Shown: positions 2 through 37,644, counted from the stretch's first letter. The stretch: DNA of 64,000 bases from Bacteroidia bacterium (GCA_037969175.1 JBBKWX010000039.1:3752-67751); one strand, 5' to 3'. Program-made: numbers and translations. The notes: generated from the letters alone by a model not told the origin.

Positions 2-1870
2 GCAAGAATACTAACCATTTTGTTTCTTGTGTTTGCTTTTTCTCAGCCATTTATACCTGTTGGAAATGCTGGTCCTGTGGTTCAACAAAGAATTGTAAGT
101 GTATTTATTGACAATTCTTTTAGCATGGAACAGGAGGGTAATAATGGAACCTTGCTAGACGAAGCGAAAGCAAAAGCAGAAGCAATTGCACAAGCATACT
201 CCCCTTCTGACAGATACCATTTGCTTACACAGGATTTTGAAAGTCGTCATCAGCGGAACATGAGTCGTGATGAATTCTTAGAAGCCGTACAAGAGGTCAA
301 ACCCACTGCCAGTGTGCATATGTTGCATGAGATACTGAACAGACAAAAAGAAGCCTTACAAGACTTTGAAGTAGCTGCCCGCAAGATCTATATGCTGACT
401 GATCTACAAAAAACAGGTATTGATCTAACTCAATTGAATGCTGATACTTTGAATCATATTAATATGATTCCACTTGTTGGGCAAACTTTCAGGAATATTA
501 GCATTGATACCTGTTGGATAAATACGCCTGCTATTCAACCCGGTGCAAGGGTAGAATTAAATGTGAGATTGAAGAATTTTAGTGAAACGGATGAAAGTCA
601 GATTCCATTAAAACTAAGTGTAAATGGAAGTCAGCGAGCTATAAGTTCAGTTGATATTTCGGGAAATGGAGAATCTGAAGTTGTACTTTCATTTACAGTA
701 AATGAAAGTGGTTGGCAGAATTGTCAATTATCAATCAGCGATCATCCCATCACTTTTGATGACACGTATTATTTAAGCTTTCCGGTTTCGGAAGTGCTCA
801 ATGTTTTAACCATTATTTCCAGTGGTGACAATCAGAATTTAAATGCGGTTTATTCTACAGACCCTTATTATAAACAAAGTCAGACAGAAGTAACGAAAGT
901 TGACTATGGAAGTCTTAGCAAGTATGACCTAATAATTCTTCAGGGTCTTGATATGATACCCAGTGGCTTATCGGCTTCTATTTCAGAATTGGTAAAGCAA
1001 GGAGGTACTGTTTGCGTTGTTCCGGGAACAAAAGCTGATTTGGGTAGTTATCAATCGTTTTTAAGCAATGTTGATGCAAATTATTTAAGTGGCTCCGATA
1101 CTCAATATGTAAAGGTCAATGCTATCGATATCAGAAATGAACTATTCAAAGATGTTTTTGAAAAGGCGCCCGATAATATTGAAATGCCCTGGACAAAAAA
1201 GAGATATTTATTGAGTCTGAATACGCGTATCAGTGGTGAAAATCTGATGACATATACAGATGGTCAGGTATTTTTAAAGAAATTTAATTCAGGAAACGGA
1301 AAAGTATATCTTTTTACTTCTTCCCTATCTGCTTCTGAAAGTAATTTCAGCAGTCATGCATTATTTGTTCCTGTATTCCTAAGATTAGCTTTATTAAGCA
1401 GACAAGATGGTGGTAATGCAAATATTATTGGCAGAGACAGAAGTATTTCTATTCCGATACAAATTGATCTGCAAGGAGATAAAGTAGCTCATTTGATAAA
1501 TAAAGAAAATCAATTTGATATAATTCCTGAAATAAAGAATATTGGTCGGCGGTCATTTCTTGAGATCTATGATCAGATCAAAGATGCCGGTATATATGAA
1601 TTGAATCACAACGAAAAAGCAATATGGAATTACGCTTTTAATTTTGACAGGAAAGAAAGTGATCCTAAGATATACACAATTGAGGAACTGAAGAATTTTA
1701 CAGAACAGGCGGGGATAACACAAATCAGCTTTATGGAAGGCGGGGTGAAAAACTTTGAAAAATTCATCAGTGAATCCGAAAAAGGAATTTCTCTTTGGAA
1801 GATCTGTATTCTGCTTGCATTGGTTTTTATAGGAATTGAAGTGTTGCTTTTAAAATTCATGAAATCATGA
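2..1870 (+). CDS. vWA-domain membrane protein, BatA-like (aerotolerance-regulator N-terminal-domain family). 5'-partial: the reading frame is open to the window edge.
   Basis: Frame is open from nt 2 (ARILTILFLVFAFSQ...) with no upstream stop, so the N-terminus lies outside the window. A VWA MIDAS-like motif VFIDNSFSM is present. A C-terminal hydrophobic TM segment LWKICILLALVFIGIEVLLL is present. The stop overlaps the next ATG (ATGA at 1867-1870). Confidence 0.6.
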   Translation, partial: ARILTILFLVFAFSQPFIPVGNAGPVVQQRIVSVFIDNSFSMEQEGNNGTLLDEAKAKAEAIAQAYSPSDRYHLLTQDFESRHQRNMSRDEFLEAVQEVKPTASVHMLHEILNRQKEALQDFEVAARKIYMLTDLQKTGIDLTQLNADTLNHINMIPLVGQTFRNISIDTCWINTPAIQPGARVELNVRLKNFSETDESQIPLKLSVNGSQRAISSVDISGNGESEVVLSFTVNESGWQNCQLSISDHPITFDDTYYLSFPVSEVLNVLTIISSGDNQNLNAVYSTDPYYKQSQTEVTKVDYGSLSKYDLIILQGLDMIPSGLSASISELVKQGGTVCVVPGTKADLGSYQSFLSNVDANYLSGSDTQYVKVNAIDIRNELFKDVFEKAPDNIEMPWTKKRYLLSLNTRISGENLMTYTDGQVFLKKFNSGNGKVYLFTSSLSASESNFSSHALFVPVFLRLALLSRQDGGNANIIGRDRSISIPIQIDLQGDKVAHLINKENQFDIIPEIKNIGRRSFLEIYDQIKDAGIYELNHNEKAIWNYAFNFDRKESDPKIYTIEELKNFTEQAGITQISFMEGGVKNFEKFISESEKGISLWKICILLALVFIGIEVLLLKFMKS

Positions 1871-3141
1871 TCTATCTTTTGAAATCTGCGATCTTACGAT
1901 CACCGGGGCATTCATTAAATGGGAAAAAAGTTGATCTTTTGGTAACTCACGGCAAGATCAATCAACTATCCGGTAAAAGTATAACTGAAACAAAAGTTGA
2001 TGAAGTGATCGACTGTCAAGGATTAAGCATTAGTCCGGGATGGTTTGATATGCAGGTCAATTTCAGGGAGCCGGGTTATGAATATAAGGAAGAGATAGCT
2101 ACAGGACTTGAAGCAGCAAAAGCAGGAGGATTTACCGGAGTTGCACTGATGCCAAGCACTAAGCCCGCCATTCAAAGCAGGTCAGAAGTTGAATATGTGA
2201 TCCGGAAAGCACAGAATAGCGGAGTGGATCTGATACCGGTTGGTTGTATCTCTGTGAACAGAGAAGGTGTTGATATTGCAGAAATGTATGATATGTATCA
2301 AGCCGGAGCAAGAGCTTTTTCGGATGATCAAAGACCTGTGAAAGATGCAGGATTGATGTTACGTGTTTTGCAATATTCTCTGAATTTTGGTGGATTGGTA
2401 TTTTCTTTTCCTGAAGATACAAGTATTAGTGGCAAGGGGCAGGTAAATGAAAGTGAGGTGACCATTTCATTGGGAATTAAGACCTCGCCTGCAATGGCCG
2501 AAGAATTATGTATTGCAAGAGATATTGAATTATCAAAATATGCGGAGGCTCCGATACACTTTAATACAATCTCTACTTCAAAAGGAGTTGAACTTATAAG
2601 GCAAGCAAAAAAAGCAGGTTTACAAGTAAGCGCCGGTGTTAGTATGAACCATTTGGTTCTTGATGATAGTTCTTTGGAAGGTTTTGATAGTAATTTCAAG
2701 ATCAAGCCTCCATTGAGATCTAAAGCAGACAGAAAAGCTTTGATCGCAGGTTTAAAAGACGGCACTATCGATGTAATTGTTTCGGATCACCGACCCGAAG
2801 ATGAAGAATCCAAAGTAAGAGAATTTGAACATGCCTCTTATGGAACTATCGGTTTGGAGAGTTTGTTTGGTTTAGCCGGCAAATACATAATTCCTGAGAT
2901 AGGAATGGATAACTTCATCAATGCGGTGTCAATAAAACCCAGGATTTTGATGGATGCTCCTCAAGCCCTTATTGAAACAGGAGCGAATGCGAATTTTACG
3001 ATCTTTTCTGAAGATGAAGAATATGATTTTGATAAAAAGCATATCAGATCAAAATCCATGAATACTCCTTACCTGGGAGAATTAATGAAGGGCAAGGTGA
3101 AAGGAGTATTAAATCAAGGAGTTTATTTTAAGGTCGACTAA
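1867..3141 (+). CDS. Dihydroorotase-like cyclic amidohydrolase, probably a catalytically inactive PyrC'-type pseudoenzyme.
   Basis: 424 aa. Colinear with class I DHOase: ...DMQVNFREPGYEYKEEIATGLEAAKAGGFT..., SDDQRPV, and DHRPE in place of DHAPH. The canonical HxH Zn ligands (D-x-H-V-H-x-REPG) are replaced by Q-V-N. ATG at 1867 is coupled to the upstream gene. Confidence 0.75.
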   Translation: MIYLLKSAILRSPGHSLNGKKVDLLVTHGKINQLSGKSITETKVDEVIDCQGLSISPGWFDMQVNFREPGYEYKEEIATGLEAAKAGGFTGVALMPSTKPAIQSRSEVEYVIRKAQNSGVDLIPVGCISVNREGVDIAEMYDMYQAGARAFSDDQRPVKDAGLMLRVLQYSLNFGGLVFSFPEDTSISGKGQVNESEVTISLGIKTSPAMAEELCIARDIELSKYAEAPIHFNTISTSKGVELIRQAKKAGLQVSAGVSMNHLVLDDSSLEGFDSNFKIKPPLRSKADRKALIAGLKDGTIDVIVSDHRPEDEESKVREFEHASYGTIGLESLFGLAGKYIIPEIGMDNFINAVSIKPRILMDAPQALIETGANANFTIFSEDEEYDFDKKHIRSKSMNTPYLGELMKGKVKGVLNQGVYFKVD

Positions 3142-3255
3142 TCAAAATCCGGTGATTTGTATAAATATCCACCATCGGCTATCTGATGCATATTGATCAA
3201 ATAAGAAACTACTGAAATAGGATATATAATTTATCCCAAAATGTATTTAAAAAAA

Positions 3256-3286
3256 GAACCCCGAAACAAGTTTCGGGGTTCTTTGT
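3256..3286. terminator. Bidirectional rho-independent terminator hairpin between convergent genes.
   Basis: Perfect 12-bp inverted repeat GAACCCCGAAAC-aag-GTTTCGGGGTTC. It is preceded by an A7 run, which is a U-run for the minus-strand gene ending at 3304, and followed by TTTGT on the + strand. Confidence 0.8.
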
Positions 3287-3303: not shown

Positions 3304-5136
3304 TTATTTGGTCACGACCATTTTCCTTCTAACATCATTATTTCCAACAGTAATAACTGCAGAATAGACACCAGCAGGTAATGAACGTAAGTCAAGCTGC
3401 ATACTGTTAGCACCTTGAGAAACAAATCCATAATTCTGATCCATAATAAGCTGCCCATTGATATTGAATATCTTCAAAGCCATTTTTGAAGGTGTATCCA
3501 GATTAAAATCAAGGTTGATCAGATTATTAGCAGGGTTTGGATAGAACATTCCGAATTCACCTTTAGCAATGTTATTCTCTTGAACAGCAACGCCGGATTG
3601 TCTTTTGATAGTTGCATTGATCATCAGATCACGAATCTCTCTGTAACGATACGGAGCCCATGAATTTGATAAGATCTCATATGTATTGTTTGAGATAGGA
3701 AGGTTGGTATCTTCTCCCAAAACAATTCCTTCTCCATCCATAACCCAACCAATATACACTGAACCTGAGGTGATAACAATTGGTGTAGGAAGCGTTACAG
3801 CATTCCAAGCATTCAAAAGGACAGAGGTAGAAGCAACAGTGATTGAATCGATCAAAGCACCCGGAGCACCATTTACACCACTGTCATCATAAACTTTAGC
3901 ATGGAATCCTGAATTAGTTGGATTAGTCATGATGAAGTAGTCAAGTTGTGTAAGATCGCAAGGATAAAATGGAGGTGTAAATTTCACTCCTGTTCCACCA
4001 TTGCCACCAGTCCAGCTAATTCCTGTTCCATCTGCAATTCCATCATCATAGCTAAGACGAATATTACTCAAAGTAGTATCGACAACCTGAAGCTCCATGA
4101 TCTTACGATTGTTTGAAGGAGTAGCGTCACCAGCCAACTGTGTATCTGTAAAGAAACGATAAACACCCGCAGTGGTAGGGTTGAATACAGTAGGACCAAC
4201 CAATATTTGAGAAGTACTTGGTGCCATTGGTGCAGTCATGATATTATCCTGAGCCTGAACAAAATTCGAAGCATTCAATACACGCATCCATACATTGAAC
4301 GGATTCAATGGCTGATTTCCTGTGTTGCTGATCTCAGTAGACATCTGGAATGAATTTCCTCCTTTTGAAAGAAATTTTCCACCCGTGGTTGGATTATCAT
4401 TTGATTGAACAGAAGCATCATTCACCTGGAATGTTACTACCGGAGGATAAGTAAAACCAACTACAGTATTCGCCGGTGGATATACCAACGTAGAATATTG
4501 AAGTCCGATATTACCAGTATTATTTTCCATCCCAATGGAAATAAATGACGCTGTTGAAACTGAAGCACCTTGCTGTTGAAGGTATTGGAATTTCAAACTG
4601 CTATCCGCTTTAGCTAGAATTATCTGGAATGAATTGCTTCCAGTATAACCGGCACCTACATTAGTATAAAAAGGAGCGTCGAGCCAGGAAACAACCAAAG
4701 AATCAGCTCCAGGGCTTGTATAGTACCAACAAGTTCCAATGTTACCCGGTTCACCGAATGTAAGATCAGAAGCAAATGGTGCTATCACATCATTTGGTGC
4801 AGCTGCAGTTGGAAATGATGGAAAAGGATGAGCCATCATGTTAAGGCCATTAAATTTAATATAACCATTAGATCCTATCCAGAACTGGGATACATCGTAC
4901 CAATAATATCTGAAAGGGAATCCTATGACAAATGGGCCAACTACATTATCATCCAATAGTCCGGATACCTGAGTAGCTCCAGGAAGAGTTGTGATATCGA
5001 CCCAATTAAATACGGGACCTCCTACTGCATTTTGATCGGCCCAGGTATAGCCAAAAGTGTCAGGTCCACCCGTTTGAGCCTGAAGCCCAAATGCAGTACC
5101 AATTAAAAATAAGCTTGAGAATAATAGTTTTTTCAT
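3304..5136 (-). CDS. Secreted protein with a T9SS type-A C-terminal sorting domain (Por_Secre_tail). Function unknown.
   Basis: Signal peptide MKKLLFSSLFLIGTAFGLQAQ. C-terminal ~80 aa ...FYPNPANNLINLDFNLD...LKIFNINGQLIMDQ...GVYSAVITVGNNDVRRKMVVTK is typical of T9SS CTD type A. ATG confirmed at 5134-5136. Confidence 0.8.
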   Translation of the reverse strand: MKKLLFSSLFLIGTAFGLQAQTGGPDTFGYTWADQNAVGGPVFNWVDITTLPGATQVSGLLDDNVVGPFVIGFPFRYYWYDVSQFWIGSNGYIKFNGLNMMAHPFPSFPTAAAPNDVIAPFASDLTFGEPGNIGTCWYYTSPGADSLVVSWLDAPFYTNVGAGYTGSNSFQIILAKADSSLKFQYLQQQGASVSTASFISIGMENNTGNIGLQYSTLVYPPANTVVGFTYPPVVTFQVNDASVQSNDNPTTGGKFLSKGGNSFQMSTEISNTGNQPLNPFNVWMRVLNASNFVQAQDNIMTAPMAPSTSQILVGPTVFNPTTAGVYRFFTDTQLAGDATPSNNRKIMELQVVDTTLSNIRLSYDDGIADGTGISWTGGNGGTGVKFTPPFYPCDLTQLDYFIMTNPTNSGFHAKVYDDSGVNGAPGALIDSITVASTSVLLNAWNAVTLPTPIVITSGSVYIGWVMDGEGIVLGEDTNLPISNNTYEILSNSWAPYRYREIRDLMINATIKRQSGVAVQENNIAKGEFGMFYPNPANNLINLDFNLDTPSKMALKIFNINGQLIMDQNYGFVSQGANSMQLDLRSLPAGVYSAVITVGNNDVRRKMVVTK

Positions 5137-10516: not shown

Positions 10517-11635
10517 GTGATCATAGGGGTACCAAAAGAAACAAAAGCTCGCGAAATGCGGGTAGCATTAACACCGGATGTAGTGAAAGCACTCGTATTA
10601 GCCGGTTTCAAATGTAATGTAGAGAGCAATTCAGGAACAGGATCCTATTATTCAGATGAATCCTATGTTTCTGCAGGAGCTGAAATAAAAGATAAAACAA
10701 GCATTTATTCCCAATCAGATGTGATTGTGAAAGTTAACCCTCCTGAATCTTCGGAGATCCAAAGCATGAAGAAAGGTTCAGTCCTGATATCTTTCATGTA
10801 TGCTGCGTCTAATCCTGATCTGGTATCTGCATGTGAACATGCTGGCATAAGCAGTTTCTCTGTTGATGCCATACCGCGTATTTCCAGAGCACAAAAGATG
10901 GATGCATTGAGCAGCCAGGCTAATCTTGCGGGTTATAAATCCGTTTTGATCGGAGCAAATGCATTGGGGAAGATCTTCCCGATGTTAATGACTGCTGCGG
11001 GAACATTGAAGCCATCCAAGGTTGTTATAATGGGTGCCGGAGTTGCCGGTCTGCAAGCAATTGCAACCGCAAAGAGATTGGGTGCTATTGTAGAAGTTTC
11101 AGATATACGTCCTGAATCAAAAGAACAGATCGAGTCACTGGGAGGAAAATTTATTGAGATCAAGGGTGATGAAAGTGTGCAGACTGAAGGTGGTTATGTA
11201 AAAGGGGTTTCTGATGACTTCTTAAAAAGACAACAAGAATTGCTATTCAAACATATAACTGCAGCTGATCTTGTAATCACTACTGCATTGATTCCGGGAA
11301 AGAAAGCGCCGATACTTGTAACAGAAGATATGGTTAAAAACATGAGACCGGGTTCTGTTATTGTTGATATGGCTGTAGAACAAGGTGGAAATTGCGCCTT
11401 GAGTAAGTTGAATGAAACAGTAGAATTGAATGGTGTAAGAATAATTGGTGAATCAAATTTACCAAGTCTTTTACCTATGAATGCAAGTGATTTGTATGCT
11501 AAAAACATTCAGGCATTTCTAACACATCTTGCAGGACCTGATGGGTTCAAATGGGAGATGGAAGAAGAGATCACTAAAGGATCCCTGATCACGCACGACG
11601 GAAAGAAAGTACATCCAAGTTTATTAACAAATTAA
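10517..11635 (+). CDS. pntAA: NAD(P) transhydrogenase alpha subunit, part 1 (dI, AlaDH/PNT domain).
   Basis: N-terminus (GTG)IIGVPKETKAREMRVALTPD matches the PntA start. Rossmann motif MGAGVAGLQAIATAKRLGA. The apparent start is GTG at 10517, with no in-frame ATG before the conserved N-terminus. Confidence 0.9.
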   Translation: MIIGVPKETKAREMRVALTPDVVKALVLAGFKCNVESNSGTGSYYSDESYVSAGAEIKDKTSIYSQSDVIVKVNPPESSEIQSMKKGSVLISFMYAASNPDLVSACEHAGISSFSVDAIPRISRAQKMDALSSQANLAGYKSVLIGANALGKIFPMLMTAAGTLKPSKVVIMGAGVAGLQAIATAKRLGAIVEVSDIRPESKEQIESLGGKFIEIKGDESVQTEGGYVKGVSDDFLKRQQELLFKHITAADLVITTALIPGKKAPILVTEDMVKNMRPGSVIVDMAVEQGGNCALSKLNETVELNGVRIIGESNLPSLLPMNASDLYAKNIQAFLTHLAGPDGFKWEMEEEITKGSLITHDGKKVHPSLLTN

Positions 11636-11647
11636 ATTCCTTTATAC

Positions 11648-11965
11648 ATGGAAGCAATCATTGAATTTCTGGGACAAAATATGCAGATGATATACATTGT
11701 CATTTTGAGCATTTTTGTTGGTGTAGAAGTTATTGGCAAAGTTCCATCCGTATTACACACACCACTTATGTCAGGGGCAAATGCCATACATGGAGTGGTT
11801 ATCATCGGAGCAATTTTGGTGATGTTGAATATAGATGAAGCAAGCAGTCATTATATGTTGTCAGTGAGTTTAGGCTTTGTAGCTGTGGTACTTGGAACTC
11901 TTAATGTCGTTGGAGGATTCGTAGTAACTGACCGTATGCTTGAGATGTTCAAAAAGAAAAAATAA
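11648..11965 (+). CDS. pntAB: NAD(P) transhydrogenase alpha subunit, part 2 (small membrane subunit).
   Basis: 105-aa polytopic membrane protein (VILSIFVGVEVIG..., GVVIIGAILVMLN...) located between pntAA and pntB. Confidence 0.85.
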   Translation: MEAIIEFLGQNMQMIYIVILSIFVGVEVIGKVPSVLHTPLMSGANAIHGVVIIGAILVMLNIDEASSHYMLSVSLGFVAVVLGTLNVVGGFVVTDRMLEMFKKKK

Positions 11966-11990
11966 TTAAGATCCACATTAATCATCCTTA

Positions 11991-13376
11991 ATGGAAACCC
12001 AATATATACTTGAAATTATTTACCTGATCGCATCGGTAACTTTTGTATTAGGATTGAAAATGCTTAGCCATCCTGAATCGGCGCGGAAAGGAAATCTCTT
12101 TGCTGCATTTGGAATGACCATAGCTATCATTGGCACCTTGTTCATTCATGAGAAAGAAGTATCACCCATGATCTATGGTTTGATCCTTACTGCTATCGGA
12201 ATTGGAACTGTAGTTGGCTGGTTGACGGCTATGAAAGTGAAGATGACAAAGATGCCTGAATTGGTATCCTTATTCAATGGAATGGGTGGTGCATGTGCAG
12301 CGTTGATTTCATTAGTTGAATTTGAACATTATATGGGACAAGCGGGTCCAATGATCACCGTTATGGGAGGCTTGGTAATCGGAAGCGTTTCTTTCTCAGG
12401 AAGTATGATAGCCTGGGCAAAATTGAACGGAACAATTAACAAGGCGATACGTCTCCCCTCTTATAATATCATCAACCTGATTTTGCTGATCGTAACTGTT
12501 TTGGCTGCTGTATCTGTTGTTGTTATGGGTGGAGCAAGCAGTCTATTCATCTACCTGATCTTTGCTTTGGCATTGGCTTACGGTATTATGCTTGTACTTC
12601 CGATCGGTGGTGCTGATATGCCTGTAGTAATCTCTTTATTGAACTCATTTACGGGAGTTGCCGCTGCATTTGGTGGATTTCTTTATGGCAATCAGGTAAT
12701 GCTGACCGGTGGTATTTTGGTAGGTTCAGCAGGAACAATTCTGACCCTGGTGATGTGTAATGCAATGAACCGTCCATTAGGTAATGTGATCTTCGGAGCA
12801 TTTGGTGAATCTGCCGTAGCTTCAGACAGAGGTGATTTTGCCGGAAGTGTAAAAGATATCTCCATTTCTGATGCTGCTACATTGATGAATTATTCTAAGA
12901 AAGTTATCATTGTACCGGGATACGGATTGGCTGTAGCACAGGCTCAGCATGTGATACATGAATTGGAACTTATATTGGAAGAACGTGGTGTGGAAGTGAA
13001 ATATGCGATCCATCCTGTAGCAGGAAGGATGCCGGGCCATATGAATGTTTTGCTTGCTGAATCAAATGTTGACTATGGAAAACTTTCAGAAATGGAAGAG
13101 ATAAATCCTGAATTTACATCGACAGATGTGGTTTTAGTTGTTGGAGCAAATGACGTTGTAAACCCTGCAGCACACAATGACCCATCAAGCCCGATCTATG
13201 GAATGCCAATTCTCGATGTGGAATTTGCCAAGAATATTCTTATCAATAAGCGTAGTATGAATGCAGGTTATGCGGGTATAGAAAATGAACTTTTCTATGA
13301 TCCAAAGACCAGTATGTTATTTGGTGATGCAAAAGCAGTTCTTACAAAACTTGTGACAGAGTTGAAGTCTATGTAA
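11991..13376 (+). CDS. pntB: NAD(P) transhydrogenase beta subunit.
   Basis: 461 aa. N-terminal TM domain plus C-terminal NADP(H)-binding dIII (...VIIVPGYGLAVAQAQH..., GANDVVNPAA). Canonical operon position. Confidence 0.9.
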   Translation: METQYILEIIYLIASVTFVLGLKMLSHPESARKGNLFAAFGMTIAIIGTLFIHEKEVSPMIYGLILTAIGIGTVVGWLTAMKVKMTKMPELVSLFNGMGGACAALISLVEFEHYMGQAGPMITVMGGLVIGSVSFSGSMIAWAKLNGTINKAIRLPSYNIINLILLIVTVLAAVSVVVMGGASSLFIYLIFALALAYGIMLVLPIGGADMPVVISLLNSFTGVAAAFGGFLYGNQVMLTGGILVGSAGTILTLVMCNAMNRPLGNVIFGAFGESAVASDRGDFAGSVKDISISDAATLMNYSKKVIIVPGYGLAVAQAQHVIHELELILEERGVEVKYAIHPVAGRMPGHMNVLLAESNVDYGKLSEMEEINPEFTSTDVVLVVGANDVVNPAAHNDPSSPIYGMPILDVEFAKNILINKRSMNAGYAGIENELFYDPKTSMLFGDAKAVLTKLVTELKSM

Positions 13377-14571
13377 ACAAGTTGAGGAGGGGGAATTCTT
13401 TTGATAAGATCAATTTATCATCTGCCCCTAACCATTTTTTCAATATTGTTGAATAGACAGATCTAAAATCAAGCTTGAATTTAAGATCTCCATTTTCCAA
13501 ATCATTTAAATCAGGGAGTTCATTAAAGAATCCGGATCTATTTAATTTTCCACCGGCAAGAAAAATTTGGTTTGCGGTTCCATGATCGGTACCGGCTGAA
13601 CCATTTTCATTAACCCTTCTTCCAAATTCGGAAAATGTCATGATCAGTGTTTCATCTAACAACTGGTCTTTGCGCAGGTCATCGCAGAATGCTGTTATGC
13701 CATCGGCATACATTTGCAATAGCCTCCCCTGCCTACCCTGTTGACGGTTATGTGTATCAAATCCACCCAAAGAAACATAGTATATTTTTGTTTCTGAACC
13801 ACTTTTAATTAATTGTGCAACGGTACTAAGGTCCTGTGAAAAAGCAGTATTTGCATAATCCGTTCGGTTCTTTTTCAGATCTAATTTCTCTTTGAGATAA
13901 TCAGCTGATGATACTGTTTCAGTTAAGGTCTTGTAGAGATATGCAACATTTTCATGATCCGAATCTATGATGGTATTTGCAGATCTTCTGATGGATGGTG
14001 AAGAGACCACTCTTGAGAAAGTATTGATATCTGAAAAAGAAAGTCCCTTAACGTTTTTTCCCTTTAAAGCCAATGCCAGACTATCATCCAATTCAATGGC
14101 AGTATAGGGTTTACATTCCCCTTTACACTCAGAATCCAGATATCTTCCAATCCATCCGGTTTCCAAATATTCTTTTGAATCAGAAGCAGTTTGCCAGATG
14201 TCCATCGATCTGAAATGTGATCGATCCGGATTAGGATATCCTACATTATTCAGAATACTCAACTCGTTTTTCTCAAGCAATTTCATCATGGGTTTCAATG
14301 CCTGATTGAATCCCATATCGGATCCTATATTTATGATATCCTTAGCTGGAATTGCAATCTGGGGTCGGGAAGAATAATAGATATCATTTCTAAATGGAAT
14401 GATCGTGTTAAGTCCGTCATTACCACCTCCCAGTTGAATTATAACTAGTTTCCTTGACCCTCCGGCAGGAAAAACTTGACTAACCGGATTATTCATTCCC
14501 TTGAGGAAAGCCGGGATGAATAAACTACCGGAAGCCAATGCGGAATATCTTAAAAACTGTCTCCTTTTCAT
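13369..14571 (-). CDS. DUF1501 domain protein (sulfatase/alkaline-phosphatase-like fold), Tat-signal secreted.
   Basis: Twin-arginine signal MKRRQFLRYSALASGSLFIPAFLKG. Conserved partner of DUF1800. ATG at 14569-14571 overlaps the upstream stop (ATGA). Confidence 0.8.
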   Translation of the reverse strand: MKRRQFLRYSALASGSLFIPAFLKGMNNPVSQVFPAGGSRKLVIIQLGGGNDGLNTIIPFRNDIYYSSRPQIAIPAKDIINIGSDMGFNQALKPMMKLLEKNELSILNNVGYPNPDRSHFRSMDIWQTASDSKEYLETGWIGRYLDSECKGECKPYTAIELDDSLALALKGKNVKGLSFSDINTFSRVVSSPSIRRSANTIIDSDHENVAYLYKTLTETVSSADYLKEKLDLKKNRTDYANTAFSQDLSTVAQLIKSGSETKIYYVSLGGFDTHNRQQGRQGRLLQMYADGITAFCDDLRKDQLLDETLIMTFSEFGRRVNENGSAGTDHGTANQIFLAGGKLNRSGFFNELPDLNDLENGDLKFKLDFRSVYSTILKKWLGADDKLILSKEFPLLNLFT

Positions 14572-15962
14572 GTCAATTGGTATTCAGGCAAGGCCATCAA
14601 TTCTATGATCGCATTCTTTATTGAGGTTTGATCATGCAGTTCGATTGATTCTACAACATAATTTTTCGGTTTGACTCTCAGCATTATCTCAACAAGTGTA
14701 TTTTTCTTTTCATTTTTGGAAACACCATTTAGATCTGATTCAATCTTAGACCAATTTGCAAATGGTTTGAATTTCGCCAGGGCTCTACCTCCCATCATAC
14801 GAGCTTCATCGTTTGGTTCCATTTGTCGTTCTGTTTCGGCAAGATCAACATAAGCAACAGAAAGAATCTTTGCAGGCAATTCAAGTCTGAATAAAAGCGA
14901 TGAACTATCGATCCAGGCTTTTCCCCAGGACCATCCTGCAACACTGGGAGGAAATAATAAAACTTGCCCCATTAATCTTTGCAGATTAGCATTAGGATCA
15001 TCTCCTTCGTAGCGAACGGGAACTAATCTATAGATCCCTACTAGTAATTCAACCGGAGACTTTATTCTTGCTCCATGGTATTTATTCTGATAGAAAAAAT
15101 CAGATGAGAATATGTACACCAATAATTTCGAGGTATCATAATCGGACTTATAATAAAATTCAGCCATCTCATTTATGATCTTTTCATCGGGATCATCACT
15201 GATGTAAAAGGCATAAAATTTTGAAGCGATAAATTTTGCTGTCCGTTTATCTGCTAACACCAGGTCAATAACTTCTTCCGCACCGAAATTCCCCTTTTTT
15301 CCAAAAATAGTTTTAACAGAATTATCATATAATCTGGGTTCGAACCTTGAATTTCCCTTGATGTCAGTTCTCCAACCTGTAAGAGCTCTAGCTGTTTCTT
15401 TTATATCGGTTTCCGAATAATTTCCTCTTCCTATGGTAAATAATTCTAAAAATTCCCTTGCAAAATTTTCATTGATCGCTCCTGCCCTATTTTGCTGATT
15501 ATTTAGGAATATCAACATGGCAGGGTCTGATACCATCGCTAATAAAAGATTTTTGAAAGGTCCCAGAGCTAGGCTACGTATGGTATTCAATTGTTTTTGA
15601 ATGTACCAGGGATTAAACACTTTAGTTGCAAAATGATCATGCCAAAAGAAAGTGAGTTTCTCTATGTAGCCGGAATCAGTCAAGATCATTTTATTCAACC
15701 AAAATTTATTCAGATCTATTTGACTCATGCGGGAATTTCGTTCCACCTTATCTCTCTCTTCTTTGGTAAGACCCTTTTTTGAAAGCAAAGATGGATCGTC
15801 TGATCTGATAAGATCAAAAGCTGTTGCTTTTACAGATTCCTTCAGAAAGTAAGTTGCAAGATCAGCTGAATTTTTTCCTACCCATTTAGATGCGGTAGAG
15901 TGATCACATCCAAAACCCGCTCTGGCAAATGCATGAAAGATATCTTCTCTTGTCAGTCTCAT
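14568..15962 (-). CDS. DUF1800 domain protein.
   Basis: 464 aa, no signal peptide. Sits immediately upstream of, and translationally coupled to, the DUF1501 gene. This is the classic DUF1800/DUF1501 pair. Confidence 0.75.
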   Translation of the reverse strand: MRLTREDIFHAFARAGFGCDHSTASKWVGKNSADLATYFLKESVKATAFDLIRSDDPSLLSKKGLTKEERDKVERNSRMSQIDLNKFWLNKMILTDSGYIEKLTFFWHDHFATKVFNPWYIQKQLNTIRSLALGPFKNLLLAMVSDPAMLIFLNNQQNRAGAINENFAREFLELFTIGRGNYSETDIKETARALTGWRTDIKGNSRFEPRLYDNSVKTIFGKKGNFGAEEVIDLVLADKRTAKFIASKFYAFYISDDPDEKIINEMAEFYYKSDYDTSKLLVYIFSSDFFYQNKYHGARIKSPVELLVGIYRLVPVRYEGDDPNANLQRLMGQVLLFPPSVAGWSWGKAWIDSSSLLFRLELPAKILSVAYVDLAETERQMEPNDEARMMGGRALAKFKPFANWSKIESDLNGVSKNEKKNTLVEIMLRVKPKNYVVESIELHDQTSIKNAIIELMALPEYQLT

Positions 15963-34252: not shown

Positions 34253-34993
34253 CTATTTTTCACTCGGTTCAGGTGGGTTTTGGAGTACTCCTTTTTTGTA
34301 ATCCTCCTGTTTCTCGACAGTACCATTTTCATTATAATAAAGCCAGGAGCCCTCTTTATCACCATTTTTGTAAGTTCCCCGGATCCATGTTTTTCCGTTA
34401 GAGAAATTGAACAAAAATGGACCATTGGCTATATCCGCTTTAAATGTCATTTGCTTTTGAATGACACCTGTTTCAAAAAAATCGGTTTGTGTACCTTCTT
34501 TTTTACCCTCTTTCCATTGAGTCACCTGAGTCTCTTTCCCTCCGGGAAAATACACTTTCCATGTCCCATTTGGTATACCTTTTCGATAGAATTCAGTCAT
34601 TGAGATTCCACCTTGTTCATCGTAATAATTCCACAGACTATCTTTTTCTATTCCCAGATAGTAACCCGTACCCAACTTCTTTCCAGATTCTGAAAACATG
34701 ACAGAGTATTTCTGATTGCTTTTGGCTTTATAGATTAGCATGGCTTTCATCTTCCCTGAAGCATAATAATACATTGCTGTATCTACCGGCTGACCGTTCC
34801 TGAATTTAGTGCGGGCATATAAAACATCATTGCTGTAAAATTTCTCCCATACTCCCTGCTTCAGTCCTTTCGCATCTGTTCTGTTAATCGTATCTCCGTT
34901 ATGTATGTGAAATGTCTGGGCTTGAGCTAACAAGCCAGAAAAACATACAGAAAATATAAATAGTATGATTTTAATTATTGATTCTGATCGCAT
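34253..34993 (-). CDS. Secreted MORN-variant repeat protein (YwqK-family-like).
   Basis: Signal peptide MRSESIIKIILFIFSVCFSGLLAQA. Repeated G-x-W-x-x-Y/F-Y-x-N-G MORN-variant units (GVWEKFYSNDVL, GTWKVYFPGGKE, GPFLFNFSNGKT, GSWLYYNENGTV). Confidence 0.6.
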   Translation of the reverse strand: MRSESIIKIILFIFSVCFSGLLAQAQTFHIHNGDTINRTDAKGLKQGVWEKFYSNDVLYARTKFRNGQPVDTAMYYYASGKMKAMLIYKAKSNQKYSVMFSESGKKLGTGYYLGIEKDSLWNYYDEQGGISMTEFYRKGIPNGTWKVYFPGGKETQVTQWKEGKKEGTQTDFFETGVIQKQMTFKADIANGPFLFNFSNGKTWIRGTYKNGDKEGSWLYYNENGTVEKQEDYKKGVLQNPPEPSEK

Positions 34994-36144
34994 TATTTCT
35001 TTCTTGTTTTAATAAGATCAACATATAGTTCCTTGAATGCATTCACCATGCCCTCCCATGAAAATCTTTTCTTTTCTTCTTTCACTCCCAAAGTTAACTC
35101 TGCTTGCTTTTCATTATTGTAAAAATCAACAATCGCATTTTCAATCGAAAAACCATCAGGTTCGCAAACATATCCCGCTATACCATGAGGAACTATCTCC
35201 GGCAATCCCCCAACATTGGTAACGATCATCGGTTTTTCAAAGTGATAGGCGATTTGAGTTACTCCACTTTGGGTTGCACTAAGGTATGGTTGAGTAACAA
35301 TATCAGCTGCACCAAACAAATACTTCACTTTGTCATCAGGAATAAATTCATCCATGATGATAATGTTGTCAGAGAGACCATTATTTTGGATAAAATCAGT
35401 ATAACTCTGTTTATCCTCATAAAATTCTCCGGCAACTATAAGCTTGGTGCCAAGAGCTTTAATTTTTTCAGAATTCATTGCTTCTAATAAGATCTGAAGC
35501 CCTTTGTATTTCCTGATAAAACCAAAGAATAACAAGTAATTGTAAGTTGGATCAAGACCTAAAACTTTGCAAGATTCAATTTTCTCAACTTTTTCACCAT
35601 AATGAGAATAAATTGGATGCGGATTATTTCGGATCAATTTAATGTCATCAAATTTCTTAAGATCTGCACCAACAGCATCTGACATTACCATAAAGCCATC
35701 GCATGCTTTCACAAATAGTGATGTGAAAAATTTGTCACCTATTCTTTTTTCATGTGGGATAATATTATCTGCAAAGCCAACAACTCTTCCGGGTATCGAT
35801 TTTCTGGATAATGCTGAAACCAATGCCAGTGTAGGTGCCATAAATGGAATCCAATATCTGAGTATTAGCATATCCGGCTGCTCCTTCTTTATAAATTGAG
35901 CTGTTTTATACCATGACCAGGGATTCACAGAGCTTAATAAGGAATGAATCTTTAGGTTTTCAGGCGCAGATCTGGTTAGATCTATCTGTGATTTACCAGG
36001 AAATAAGATCGAAGGATACTGAAGATAATAAGATATGATCTGCACATGATGTCCATCTGTGATAAATGATTTTGCCAACTCTTCATCAAAGCTTGCTATG
36101 CCTCCCCTCAATGGCCAAGCGGGTCCTACAATAATAATTTTCAA
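34993..36144 (-). CDS. Glycosyltransferase family 4 (GT-B, group 1).
   Basis: N-terminus (TTG)KIIIVGPAWPLRGGIASFDEE. C-terminal GT1 motifs (...EGFGLP-like ...GGLPEIV). The TTG start overlaps the upstream TGA (TTGA). Confidence 0.7.
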   Translation of the reverse strand: MKIIIVGPAWPLRGGIASFDEELAKSFITDGHHVQIISYYLQYPSILFPGKSQIDLTRSAPENLKIHSLLSSVNPWSWYKTAQFIKKEQPDMLILRYWIPFMAPTLALVSALSRKSIPGRVVGFADNIIPHEKRIGDKFFTSLFVKACDGFMVMSDAVGADLKKFDDIKLIRNNPHPIYSHYGEKVEKIESCKVLGLDPTYNYLLFFGFIRKYKGLQILLEAMNSEKIKALGTKLIVAGEFYEDKQSYTDFIQNNGLSDNIIIMDEFIPDDKVKYLFGAADIVTQPYLSATQSGVTQIAYHFEKPMIVTNVGGLPEIVPHGIAGYVCEPDGFSIENAIVDFYNNEKQAELTLGVKEEKKRFSWEGMVNAFKELYVDLIKTRKK

Positions 36145-37115
36145 CTGACCTCAATTTGATTTTCAGTTCCGACGACTTTATCCACCAAATAATCATTTCT
36201 GTCAGCAGCTGAGCGTGAGACCAATTCACCTATAAAACCGGTTAGAAACATTTGAGTACCAATGATCATCGCCAGTAATCCAAAATAAAACAAAGGCCGG
36301 GATGTCATATTATAAGCATCAAAAAAGTATTTCGTTAATGCCAGGTAGACCGCGATACATAATCCTCCAAAAAAAGATAAAGAACCTAATAATCCAAAAA
36401 AGTGCATAGGCCGCTTACCAAATCTAGCCATGAATGTGATGGATAACAGATCCAGGAACCCATTGACAAATCTTTCAAGGCCAAACTTAGTGACTCCATA
36501 TTTTCTGGCTCTGTGTTCTACCGGTTTCTCGGTGATCTTTGAAAACCCGGCCCATTTTGCAAGCAATGGAATATATCTGTGCATTTCACCATATACTTCT
36601 ATGCTCTTCACAACATCTCTATGATATGCTTTTAGTCCACAATTAAAATCATGTAAATTATAGATTCCGGAAACTTTGCTGGTGGTCCAGTTAAAAAATT
36701 TACTTGGAATTGTTTTGGATATTGGATCATACCTCTTTTGTTTCCATCCTGAAACCAGGTCATAGCCTTCTTTCCTTATCATATCGACCATGGCCGGAAT
36801 CTCATCAGGACTGTCCTGCAGATCTGCATCCATTGTCATGACAACCTGACCTTTTGCTTCCCGAAAACCAATATTCAGTGCAGCAGATTTTCCATAATTT
36901 CTACGGAACCGAAAACCTTTTACATTGTTGTACTCCTTGCTTAGTTCTTCAACAACATTCCAGGAATTGTCTTTACTCCCATCATCAACAAAAATTATTT
37001 CTGTCGAAAGATTATTTTCTTTTACTACCCGCTGGATCCATGTACAAAGTTCTGGTAAAGATTCCTCTTCATTGTATAATGGAATGACGATCGAAAGTTC
37101 CGGATTATGCTTCAT
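36141..37115 (-). CDS. Glycosyltransferase family 2 with C-terminal TM helices (polyprenyl-phosphate glycosyltransferase, GtrB/ArnC/DPM1-like).
   Basis: LSIVIPLYNEEESL...IIFVDDGSKDNS...DADLQD DxD-type motifs. Two C-terminal TM segments. ATG at 37113-37115 (MKHNPELS...) is preferred over the TTG-extended 37181 start. Confidence 0.8.
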   Translation of the reverse strand: MKHNPELSIVIPLYNEEESLPELCTWIQRVVKENNLSTEIIFVDDGSKDNSWNVVEELSKEYNNVKGFRFRRNYGKSAALNIGFREAKGQVVMTMDADLQDSPDEIPAMVDMIRKEGYDLVSGWKQKRYDPISKTIPSKFFNWTTSKVSGIYNLHDFNCGLKAYHRDVVKSIEVYGEMHRYIPLLAKWAGFSKITEKPVEHRARKYGVTKFGLERFVNGFLDLLSITFMARFGKRPMHFFGLLGSLSFFGGLCIAVYLALTKYFFDAYNMTSRPLFYFGLLAMIIGTQMFLTGFIGELVSRSAADRNDYLVDKVVGTENQIEVS

Positions 37116-37644
37116 CTGCAGAAAATGGGCTGGCTTTTTTCTTAATAAATAAAGCAATGACTGATGCGAAGATACCACCAAGTATAAAACTCTGCAGGTA
37201 TTGTATCATCAATCCTTTTATAGTGTATTGATCTTCAAAATTTTCGAATCTTGCTAATGCCTTCTCTATTTCATTTTCAGGAGTATTAAAACGCTCCATC
37301 ATCGACAATATCTTGTCTTCCATCAATATTTTCAGATTGGCTGCAAGCGAAGGGTCCACAAAATTGTAAAATATGATATTGAATATCAACATCACAAAAC
37401 CGGAAACTATAAAGGCAGTAAACATTACCAAAAATGCCTCTTTGAATGAAATGTATCCATCCTGCAGTTTACGAAAACTGATTCCTGTATAAATTAAGAA
37501 TCCCAGTAACATTGCAACCAGAAATGCCATGATCCAATAATTCACCATGTATTCAATATTGATAAAATAAAGGGTTATAAATACGATGATATTAATCAAG
37601 CCAAATTTAAGGCCCAGATCTAATGCATATTTCTTTAAATCCAT
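37105..37644 (-). CDS. DUF4199 family membrane protein.
   Basis: 179 aa, 4 predicted TM helices. Typical Bacteroidota partner gene immediately upstream of a GT2 polyprenyl-phosphate glycosyltransferase. Confidence 0.6.
   Translation of the reverse strand: MDLKKYALDLGLKFGLINIIVFITLYFINIEYMVNYWIMAFLVAMLLGFLIYTGISFRKLQDGYISFKEAFLVMFTAFIVSGFVMLIFNIIFYNFVDPSLAANLKILMEDKILSMMERFNTPENEIEKALARFENFEDQYTIKGLMIQYLQSFILGGIFASVIALFIKKKASPFSADEA

Follow-up and report, generated by a model that had tools for sequence, protein, structure and literature searches.

A metal-site-deficient dihydroorotase homologue encoded next to a BatA-like membrane protein in Bacteroidota and its possible role as an aspartate transcarbamoylase scaffold

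What does a protein named dihydroorotase (DHOase) do when its gene overlaps that of a membrane protein and the histidines expected at its metal site are missing? The question is raised by a reading frame at one end of the window, i.e., the 64-kb stretch of DNA from a Bacteroidia bacterium analyzed here, whose features are collected in Table 1. A preliminary description had read the product as a full-length class I DHOase homologue stripped of metal ligands and translationally coupled, through an ATGA overlap, to a BatA-like vWA membrane protein, and had proposed mapping the ligands, modeling the structure and surveying how well the gene pair is conserved. The first of these readings is borne out, since phmmer aligns residues 4 to 418 with residues 5 to 416 of Aquifex aeolicus DHOase (3d6n), the top PDB match (E 7.7e-72, 246 bits), and by sequence comparison the homology to DHOase is far above chance. 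The AlphaFold (AF2) model displays an intact and confidently predicted fold (pLDDT 89.4, pTM 0.91), for which Foldseek returns as top structural match 3d6n_A, the Aquifex DHOase bound to aspartate transcarbamoylase (ATCase) (E 3.9e-44, TM 0.92). A hydropathy and sequence scan of the 424-aa protein revealed neither a signal peptide nor a TM segment, and we detected no other DHOase gene within the 64-kb window.

Table 1. Positions of the features discussed, counted from the first nucleotide of the window
Feature	Position	Strand	Remarks
BatA/TIGR02226 membrane protein, 3' 622 codons of 684 aa	2..1870	+	First 62 aa outside window; full-length identical protein, P0121
DNSFS, DxSxS (MIDAS-type) motif of vWA-like domain	110..124	+	P0121 D99, S101, S103; D99, N100, S101, S103 invariant in 42 orthologues
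C-terminal TM helix of BatA-like protein, then tail KFMKS	1793..1855	+	19-residue hydropathy mean 2.7; AF2 helix 661-683
ATGA, pseudo-DHOase start over BatA-like stop	1867..1870	+	Read in sequence AAATCATGATC: ATG at 1867, TGA 1868-1870
Pseudo-DHOase ORF	1867..3141	+	424 aa, ATG start; type-I DHOase fold (TIM barrel + adjacent beta domain), no metal site
Q63-V-N65 in place of alpha-site His-x-His	2053..2061	+	Alignment to 3d6n
Aquifex H61 -> Q63	2053-2055	+	Replaced, alpha site
Aquifex H63 -> N65	2059-2061	+	Replaced, alpha site
Aquifex R65 (substrate-binding Arg) -> R67			Kept
Aquifex D153 -> D154			Kept
Aquifex H180 -> F181			Replaced, beta site
Loop 5 region, residues 181-226	2407..2544	+	Begins with F181 (replaces beta-site H180); conservation + AF2
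Aquifex H232 -> T234	2566..2568	+	Replaced, beta site
Aquifex D305 -> D307			Kept
D307-H308-R-P-E311	2785..2799	+	Asp ligand and next His kept, Aquifex H309 -> Glu
Aquifex H309 -> E311			Replaced
Hairpin between convergent genes	3253..3284	.	14-bp stem, A and T runs at flanks; likely bidirectional terminator closing two-gene operon
Detached module: DUF4199-like 37105-37644, ArnC/GtrB-like GT2 36141-37181, GT4 34993-36144	34993..37644	-	Pfam matches

When mapped onto Aquifex 3d6n, the window protein has four of the six metal ligands replaced (H61Q, H63N, H180F and H232T in Aquifex numbering), that is, both alpha-site and both beta-site histidines. The preliminary description had rightly seen DxHVHxREPG become DMQVNFREPG and the final His of DHAPH disappear in DHRPE. 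Its ligand list was correct regarding these His replacements, but it overlooked H180F and left unremarked the survival of both Asp ligands and of the substrate-binding Arg; it was mistaken in counting PHHL to MNHL as a ligand loss, since PNHL is found in the active Aquifex enzyme itself, and the window protein retains the conserved His. According to our analysis, the window protein is, as judged from these residues, a catalytically dead DHOase copy. Nor is it an isolated case, since it belongs to a Bacteroidota-wide family, for which we compared 118 full-length relatives (33 to 52% identity) for residue conservation and 122 loci for gene context. The alpha site (H61, H63, D153, D305) is incomplete in all 118, which agrees with the non-catalytic type-I (long) pseudo-DHOase previously proposed; at most three of the six ligand positions are kept in any relative, and 33 retain none. 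The H61 position is occupied by Q, N, S, F or R (H in 9%), that of H63 by N in 53% and H in 10%, and that of H232 by T, G, N or S; since the replacements are not conserved, they are incompatible with any shared catalytic chemistry. With Ka/Ks values of 0.04 to 0.12 in orthologue pairs and about 60 alignment columns conserved at 90% or more, the gene is, on these measures, held under strong purifying selection.

We think that a non-enzymatic scaffold is the most likely role of the pseudo-DHOase. Our leading explanation, tentative and held with somewhat less than even confidence, is that of a PyrC'/pDHO-like scaffold for ATCase, left behind when catalysis passed to a type-III DHOase. An inert type-I paralogue would have been retained by purifying selection for protein binding, its partner would be ATCase (PyrB), and the non-Bacteroidales Bacteroidota would possess a class-A2-like, presumably dodecameric ATCase, in which PyrB trimers are bridged or stabilized by dead-DHOase dimers, as in Pseudomonas. 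The DHOase reaction would fall to a separate, monomeric type-III enzyme of the phylum, of the 2gwn type, and the operon with the BatA-type gene would reflect co-expression without a common pathway or be the sign of a second role. The characterized inactive DHOase homologues, Pseudomonas pDHO and the fungal URA2-type domain, are both ATCase scaffolds, and the former is required for ATCase trimerization and activity (PMC7053772). In the searchable literature, we found no report of a physically demonstrated ATCase complex from any Bacteroidota.

Comparison with PyrC' (pDHO, PyrX), the class A2 ATCase subunit of P. aeruginosa and P. putida, reveals likenesses as well as differences. It is likewise a full-length type-I homologue of about 45 kDa, and the N-terminal fragment of P. 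aeruginosa pDHO, 35% identical to the window protein, also misses both alpha-site His (DLSVALREPGY versus DMQVNFREPGY). In class A2 ATCase, PyrC' forms a dodecamer of about 480 kDa with PyrB and is needed for ATCase activity. The scenario would parallel that of Pseudomonas also in that catalysis in the organism or phylum is left to a DHOase of another type, with a structural role presumed for the inactive one. However, pyrC' directly adjoins pyrB in the construct sequence of P. aeruginosa, whereas the pseudo-DHOase gene forms an operon with membrane-protein genes. Furthermore, the PyrC'-type NCBIfam model PRK07627 gives 300 bits for the window protein, no better than generic type-I models, and in view of this lack of specific affinity the metal-site loss is probably independent of that of Pseudomonas PyrC'.

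Aquifex DHOase, a type-I enzyme active only in a 6:6 complex with ATCase, resembles the window protein in its length, its adjacent beta domain, its short loop 4 and its conserved loop 5, and its gene, too, is not known to be linked to pyrB; however, it binds one Zn and keeps H61, H63, D153 and D305, whereas the window protein lacks both alpha-site and both beta-site His. Loop 5 of the pseudo-DHOase is among its best conserved stretches (E195, G203, P208, E212 and R218 at 98% or more; blocks 201-220 at 0.69 to 0.72), with low AF2 confidence for residues 181-210 (pLDDT 56 to 76). In Aquifex, loop 5 touches ATCase, as proposed for all type-I DHOases (PMC9771888), and the DHOase loops gain order only upon ATCase binding (PMC3880350). 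The combination of conservation and low modeled confidence resembles the Aquifex loops that are ordered on ATCase binding, although the loop-5 residues are possibly just structural, because they are conserved across all type-I DHOases. The fungal URA2-type dead DHOase likewise adjoins ATCase as a structural spacer or scaffold, but it belongs, as one domain, to a multi-enzyme polypeptide of the eukaryotic CAD lineage and is absent among the 50 best structural matches of the pseudo-DHOase. The Zn-containing, apparently monomeric type-III DHOase 2gwn of P. gingivalis comes from the same phylum and superfamily, and its first alpha-site His is naturally Gln, as in the window protein; it binds two Zn, instead, has 449 aa, a long catalytic loop and a carboxylated Lys, and matches the window protein weakly (85 bits in two stretches versus 246 bits for Aquifex).

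That the gene does not adjoin pyrB, as the preliminary description had stated, holds true well beyond its immediate surroundings: four PyrB sequences used as probes (E. coli, Aquifex, Pseudomonas and S. aureus) detected no pyrB in the entire 64-kb window, nor within 10 kb of the pseudo-DHOase at any of the 122 loci, which speaks against ATCase as the partner. It does not, however, warrant the earlier suggestion of a role unrelated to pyrimidine synthesis, since all the observations are compatible with a PyrC'-like scaffold for ATCase. The core genome of P. gingivalis lists carAB, pyrB together with pyrI, pyrE, pyrF and a single 'dihydroorotase', PG0919, which must be the catalytic DHOase, and this gene complement, together with the retained DUF4199-GT2 genes, points to a PyrC'-like role of the pseudo-DHOase. 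The same species keeps PG0313-PG0312 (DUF4199)-PG0311 (GT2), with no DHOase-like gene upstream, and two 'Bacteroidales' MAG contigs contain the BatA-like orthologue and lack the pseudo-DHOase; therefore, in these cases, one species and two MAG contigs, which make up the phyletic argument, the neighboring modules would work without the pseudo-DHOase where PyrI is available. The lineages that carry the pseudo-DHOase are not known to have pyrI, which is presumed absent there.

A second explanation, the main rival of the first although we deem it rather unlikely, takes the operon at face value: the pseudo-DHOase would be a cytoplasmic non-catalytic subunit or regulator, outside pyrimidine synthesis, of a co-transcribed, phylum-wide envelope gene set comprising the BatA/TIGR02226 vWA protein, a 222-aa acidic protein, DUF4199 and an ArnC/GtrB-like polyprenyl-phosphate GT2 (plus GT4), in which the DUF4199/GT2/GT4 module would serve extracytoplasmic glycosylation. 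The survey of loci speaks for it. A BatA-like gene lies directly upstream in 90 of the 122 loci, and the two genes overlap by exactly 4 nt in 30 of these 90 pairs and are spaced by no more than 30 nt in 65. The DUF4199/ArnC-like GT2/GT4 module follows directly downstream in about a third of the loci, with the hypothetical or DUF4199 gene no more than 16 nt away in 31 of 40 cases. Where both sides could be judged (93 loci), 57 have the upstream BatA-like gene only, 16 both partners, 17 the downstream module only, and just 3 neither; no further neighbor is conserved across the 122 loci, MoxR, DUF58 and BatB-E included. Complete arrays occur in Mucilaginibacter ginsenosidivorans (BatA - pDHO - hypothetical - DUF4199) and Olivibacter (pDHO - hypothetical - DUF4199 - GT2 - GT2), and the arrangement recurs in records of Flavobacteriales, Sphingobacteriales, Chitinophagales and Cytophagales, while pyrB is never close. 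Given this tight packing with membrane and envelope genes, expression of the pseudo-DHOase is tied to those genes and not to pyrB.

Several observations weigh against a shared function. A gene that stood in the middle of an ancestral array still adjoins one flank after any single break. In the window, the DUF4199-GT2-GT4 module lies 32 kb from the pseudo-DHOase (by blastp, its GT2 and GT4 are 69% and 50% identical to those of the locus clusters), and this detachment, together with the MAG contigs that carry the BatA-like orthologue alone, means that neither module strictly requires an adjoining pseudo-DHOase; P. gingivalis, too, has the hypothetical-DUF4199-GT2 genes and no second DHOase-like protein listed. 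Moreover, such a role is without precedent.

The architecture of the upstream protein also bears on this explanation. The ATGA coupling to a BatA-like vWA membrane protein, which the preliminary description had noticed, is evident both in the sequence and in the domain matches, the N-terminal double-TM domain, which falls just off the window, scoring 67.5 bits (1.4e-18) with PF07584 BatA and 57.5 bits with TIGR02226 in the full-length protein P0121. In P0121, a TM hairpin is followed by a vWA-like domain, a beta-sandwich, a GATase1-like a/b domain (DUF7408-like, 19.7 bits), a second beta-sandwich and a C-terminal TM, with hydrophobic segments at 1-29, 53-83 and 655-684. VWA_2 is a weak match (25.4 bits, under the cut-off of 27), and the AF2 model (pLDDT 82) places an a/b domain at 92-220; its Foldseek matches are limited to non-catalytic domains of GH42/GH3 enzymes. 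BatA of the Bacteroides Bat operon shares the N-terminal double-TM BatA/TIGR02226 domain and probably the vWA-type domain with DxSxS, whereas the upstream protein, with 684 aa, has in addition the beta-sandwich and GATase1-like domains and the C-terminal TM; its gene stands outside the MoxR-DUF58-BatA-E operon, the true Bat operon being separate in P. gingivalis (PG1579-PG1586). By the positive-inside rule, its 580-aa body is predicted to be periplasmic, and what could be reached from the cytoplasm would be confined to a basic loop of about 33 aa and the 5-aa tail. The pseudo-DHOase lacks a signal peptide and is therefore unlikely to form a simple complex with the vWA domain.

We consider it quite improbable that the pseudo-DHOase is a regulator that still takes up a ligand (carbamoyl-aspartate, dihydroorotate or a nucleotide) in its barrel and signals to a partner. 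R67, D154, D307 and H308 are retained in the window copy, and all family members share D61, H231, H308 (H306 in Aquifex), K278 and K316; however, these invariant residues are second-shell or structural and common to active type-I enzymes, whereas those that would bind substrate are not conserved: 73% of the family members have Gly or Cys in place of Arg65, an essential substrate residue of DHOase (PMC12524618), 29% keep D153 and 60% D305, and N278 varies. Still more doubtful is the reading implied by the database name, namely a working DHOase whose metal site would be unusual or mononuclear, and we give it very little credence. The window protein does pass the cut-off of the NCBIfam subfamily-domain model TIGR00857 pyrC_multi (321.6 bits versus 279), the Aquifex H180A/H232A variant is still active, so that the alpha site alone suffices (PMC3880350), and type-III enzymes accept Gln at one alpha-site position. 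Instead, both alpha-site His are gone here, the family offers no complete alpha site, and all equivalog DHOase models (at least 13) are failed by a wide margin, e.g., 320.5 versus 695. A decaying, functionless gene, which the loss of catalytic residues might suggest, is ruled out by the Ka/Ks values, the full length kept in 118 lineages, the conserved columns and the confident fold.

If the ATCase-scaffold reading is true, class A2 architecture would occur in a second large phylum, where it would have arisen independently, and an alternation of PyrI and pDHO would be predicted inside Bacteroidota. If, instead, the operon context reflects function, the pseudo-DHOase would provide a handle on an unstudied envelope module, whose DUF4199-GT2 part (PG0312/PG0311) is on the P. 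gingivalis essential-gene list, and a new kind of role for the DHOase fold; this would be the first case in bacteria of a DHOase fold serving as a scaffold or regulator outside pyrimidine synthesis, by analogy with animal CRMPs. CRMP/DPYSL proteins, found among the structural matches (TM about 0.82), are scaffolds of the cyclic-amidohydrolase fold with lost metal ligands, but they are eukaryotic, tetrameric and derived from dihydropyrimidinase, which makes the likeness one of analogy only. Public databases (NCBI and JGI among them) label the family 'dihydroorotase', e.g., in Olivibacter, Sphingobacterium, Parapedobacter, Solitalea and Daejeonella; this label is erroneous, and metabolic reconstructions scoring the family as EC 3.5.2.3 are wrong.

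According to our analysis, the pseudo-DHOase, the 424-aa dihydroorotase (DHOase) homologue of the window, is a type I DHOase homologue over its full length. It scores 321.6 bits against NCBIfam TIGR00857 (pyrC_multi; cut-off, 279) and stays far under the cut-off of every equivalog-level DHOase model (e.g., 320 versus 695). Among solved structures, those of Aquifex aeolicus DHOase match it best (3d6n, E 7.7e-72, residues 4 to 418 on 5 to 416), and the type I enzymes of Bacillus anthracis, S. aureus, and Thermus come next; the Bacteroidota type III enzyme 2gwn, from Porphyromonas gingivalis, is a weak match (85 bits). The AlphaFold2 model, built with 47 homologues (pLDDT 89.4, pTM 0.91), fits onto the structure of ATCase-bound Aquifex DHOase at a TM score of 0.92 and includes three low-confidence loops (181 to 210, 271 to 280, and 311 to 330). 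Neither a hydrophobic segment nor a signal peptide was found in the sequence. The ATG of the gene overlaps, within positions 1867 to 1870, the stop codon (TGA) of the ORF before it (...TCATGATC...), and the transcription unit probably ends at the hairpin that parts the gene from a convergent one.

Coordinates of the features discussed. L numbers denote collected pseudo-DHOase loci, and P0121 is the full-length BatA-like protein encoded upstream of the pseudo-DHOase.
Feature	Sequence	Position	Strand	Basis or remark
Pseudo-DHOase ORF, 424 codons	Window	1867-3141	+	ORF call
Hairpin, 14-bp stem	Window	3253-3284		Between pseudo-DHOase and convergent gene
Type IX secretion content	Window	3304-5136 (−), 20931-21947 (+), 23933-25564 (+), 30778-32445 (−)		
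PntA (AlaDh_PNT) and PntB genes	Window	10517-13376	+	Transhydrogenase
DUF1800/DUF1501 adjoining pair	Window	13369-15962	−	Stop/start codons overlap
DUF4199-like/ArnC-GtrB-like GT2/GT4 trio	Window	34993-37644	−	Pfam and blastp
TM helix 1	P0121	About 6-24		
Loop, strongly basic, highly conserved	P0121	25-57		Low model confidence
TM helix 2	P0121	About 58-76		
vWA-like a/b domain	P0121	92-220		Invariant DNSFS (DxSxS)
Beta-sandwich	P0121	228-324		
GATase1-like a/b domain	P0121	328-530		Weak DUF7408 match
Second beta-sandwich	P0121	543-609		
C-terminal TM helix	P0121			End, KFMKS
Inserted GxxExxY-type ORF	L006	9533-9937		
Inserted GxxExxY-type ORF	L008	6979-7371		
Polytopic membrane protein	L084	1315-3756		
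Polytopic membrane protein	L073	7402-9879		
Polytopic membrane protein	L096	7537-9891		
222-aa acidic protein	L022	1849-2517		
222-aa acidic protein	L124	11274-11945		
222-aa acidic protein	L126	9340-10008		
Pseudo-DHOase copy	L010	10001-11269		Ca. Pollutiaquabacter, CP185379

In the Aquifex enzyme, H61, H63, and D153 form the alpha site and H180 and H232 the beta site, with D305 as a further ligand; the alpha site is indispensable and the beta site dispensable (PMC3880350), which makes the loss of both alpha-site histidines the decisive point. The list of replaced metal residues in the preliminary description is right in substance when aligned to Aquifex, with two exceptions: the change of PHHL to MNHL is not a ligand loss, as the active Aquifex enzyme reads PNHL, and the replacement of H180 had been overlooked.

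Metal-site residues by alignment to Aquifex DHOase, and their variation in 118 full-length pseudo-DHOase sequences.
Aquifex residue	Window residue	State	Family
H61	Q63	Replaced	Q/N/S/F/R; H in 9%
H63	N65	Replaced	N in 53%
D153	D154	Kept	G/D/Y
H180	F181	Replaced	F/Y/H
H232	T234	Replaced	T/G/N
D305	D307	Kept	D in 60%
H309	E311	Replaced	
R65 (substrate)	R67	Kept	

Both H63 and H232 are missing in all 120 best database matches (46 to 52% identity; all Bacteroidota where named). In a family sample of 41 genome and 80 metagenome loci with 118 full-length sequences, each of the six ligand positions varies, at most three of them are kept in any one sequence, 33 of the 118 keep none, and a complete alpha site was found in none of these full-length sequences; the substrate Arg position is Gly or Cys in 73% of the family. 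Since the replacements differ between lineages, any shared alternative chemistry is excluded. Pairs with unsaturated Ks indicate strong purifying selection (Ka/Ks, 0.04 to 0.12) and conservation reaches ≥90% in about 60 columns, so that, despite the lost site, the protein is to be regarded as a functional pseudoenzyme, very probably a non-catalytic, selected protein of scaffold type. The observation of a DHOase homologue with lost Zn ligands is thereby confirmed and extended; pseudo-DHOases as a kind are already known, and what is added here is a phylum-wide Bacteroidota family with a conserved operon, which public sources name "dihydroorotase," a real consequence for annotation.

Among the copies inspected individually, that of L010 comes nearest to a working alpha site, with both alpha-site histidines (H-x-H) and D153 present, regained or retained, Asn at D305, and both beta-site histidines absent. 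Conserved glycines of the family lie near residue 52, before the motif, and at 55 to 60 (PGW motif), and these glycine motifs are common to active DHOases too. A uracil auxotroph of Chryseobacterium nematophagum has been described with DHO G53R, the DHOase paralogue concerned not being stated (preprint, bioRxiv 10.64898/2026.09.25.754504).

Clustering of all ORFs of 122 loci with 10-kb flanks revealed a single dominant neighbour, a BatA-like gene that immediately precedes the pseudo-DHOase, in the same orientation, in 90 loci. Its stop overlaps the pseudo-DHOase start in 34 of the 90 pairs (by exactly 4 nt in 30); the spacing is 0 to 30 nt in 31, 31 to 100 nt in 20, and above 100 nt in only 5, several with an inserted small ORF. 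A GxxExxY-type ORF of ~130 aa explains two of these five. In three loci the gene directly upstream encodes a polytopic membrane protein of ~800 aa for which no Pfam match was found; judged by its layout, it may be a GT-C/YfhO-like glycosyltransferase, which with GT2 would make a Gtr-like three-component system. The BatA-like gene encodes a BatA-domain protein, yet it belongs to no Bat aerotolerance operon.

The second conserved arrangement, downstream, comprises a 222-aa acidic protein, a DUF4199 membrane protein, a GT2 glycosyltransferase whose closest named relative is the undecaprenyl-phosphate glycosyltransferase ArnC and which resembles PgfS too, and a GT4, the first start usually falling ≤16 nt past the pseudo-DHOase stop. 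Where both sides could be judged, 57 loci have the upstream partner only, 16 have partner and downstream module, 17 the module only, and 3 neither. The order is BatA-pDHO-hypothetical-DUF4199 in Mucilaginibacter ginsenosidivorans and pDHO-hypothetical-DUF4199-GT2-GT2 in Olivibacter. In the window, the DUF4199-GT2-GT4 module lies 32 kb from the pseudo-DHOase on the opposite strand, while about a third of the other Bacteroidota loci carry the same trio directly downstream; the mechanical ORFs of DUF4199 and GT2 share 77 nt, which probably places the true GT2 start further downstream. The acidic protein, for which we found no Pfam match, TM segment, or family assignment, is a candidate cytoplasmic partner of the pseudo-DHOase. 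In 25 loci its gene separates those of the pseudo-DHOase and DUF4199, and the stop of one gene often overlaps the start of the next. This gene context is a testable puzzle. An ArnD-like deformylase paired with the ArnC-like GT2 was considered as the identity of the pseudo-DHOase and dropped because no catalytic residue is conserved.

The function that we rank first, if tentatively, is that of an ATCase scaffold as in Pseudomonas, whereby the old type I DHOase would have stayed as a scaffold while a newer type III enzyme took over catalysis. The characterised dead DHOases, Pseudomonas pDHO and the fungal URA2-type domain, hold ATCase together, and Pseudomonas PyrB does not trimerise without pDHO (PMC7053772). 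Bacteroidota own a separate Zn-containing type III DHOase (PMC9771888, PMC12524618), which makes the Pseudomonas scenario available to them. Docking on ATCase via loop 5 has been proposed for type I DHOases as a class (PMC9771888); in our comparison of interface conservation, which was made loop by loop, loop 5 ranks with the best conserved parts of the family, yet it is one of the three low-confidence loops of the model. These recall the three loops of Aquifex DHOase that are disordered until ATCase binds (PMC3880350). P. gingivalis has in its core genome carAB, pyrB plus pyrI, pyrE, pyrF, and a single "dihydroorotase," PG0919 (PMC3547785 Table S4), and its PG0313 (hypothetical)-PG0312 (DUF4199)-PG0311 (GT2) genes have rplU upstream and no DHOase-like gene (PMC3547785); in two "Bacteroidales" MAG contigs the BatA-like orthologue is followed by unrelated genes. 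With a PyrI-type ATCase holoenzyme, then, the neighbour modules persist without the pseudo-DHOase, a pattern that fits the scaffold reading and is the only phyletic evidence obtained. Literature searches for the ATCase class of Bacteroidota, for BatA-domain proteins, and for DUF4199 yielded nothing of use apart from the P. gingivalis locus tags.

The protein would thus work like PyrC'/pDHO, with which it has the loss of metal ligands in common, and is a candidate member of that family. Its sequence is not particularly close to the PyrC'-type NCBIfam models of proteobacteria, so its degeneration was probably independent. The adjacency to pyrB expected of a PyrC' gene is absent: with PyrB probes from E. 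coli, Aquifex, P. aeruginosa, and S. aureus (the last three from PMC7053772 S1), pyrB was found neither in the 64-kb window nor within the 10-kb flanks of any of 121 loci. Such a total lack of linkage is unexpected for an obligate PyrB partner and, together with the strong operon evidence, speaks for a partner of the envelope gene module, a possible but rather unlikely reading, against which, as an obligatory partnership, stand the P. gingivalis and Bacteroidales cases and the topology of the BatA-like protein. Of the interpretation in the preliminary description, the non-catalytic DHOase homologue, the lack of linkage to pyrB, and the coupling to a BatA-like gene stand; the step to a role unrelated to pyrimidine synthesis is not supported.

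As to that topology, the upstream ORF is truncated by the window start, and an identical full-length public protein, P0121 (684 aa), was used. By the positive-inside rule, its 580-aa body is predicted to be periplasmic, only the basic loop and a short tail facing the cytoplasm; as the pseudo-DHOase has no signal peptide, it is, on topological grounds, unlikely to bind the vWA domain, and contact would go via the short cytosolic loop or via the cytoplasmic GT2 or acidic protein. This loop, encoded just upstream of the window start, has the lowest pLDDT of the model (42 to 49), as expected for a short motif folding on a partner, and nine invariant residues lie within 24 to 42 (HLFNFR, then F36, F41, and L42). 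The only matches of a fold search were accessory domains from glycoside hydrolases (GH42 and GH3); we read these matches as a generic GATase1-like/beta-sandwich architecture and not as a sign of enzymatic activity.

Of the remaining readings, a ligand sensor is deemed improbable, residual catalysis, with no complete alpha site in the full-length sequences, highly improbable, and a decaying gene, given the purifying selection, can practically be dismissed.

PG0312 and PG0311 of P. gingivalis W83 are both in the essential-gene list (PMC3547785 Tables S1 and S4), and PG0919 lies between the GtrA-family PG0917 and another GT2, PG0920 (PMC3547785), so that DHOase-type genes beside polyprenyl-phosphate glycosylation genes recur in Bacteroidota. 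Elsewhere in the window, the type IX set, in keeping with the Bacteroidota origin to which the protein homologues point, consists of two Por_Secre_tail cargo proteins, of which one is an S8 peptidase, together with a CHU_C-tailed protein and a PorP/SprF homologue, and the ~350-nt gap between PntA and PntB may leave room for a small PntA-beta subunit.
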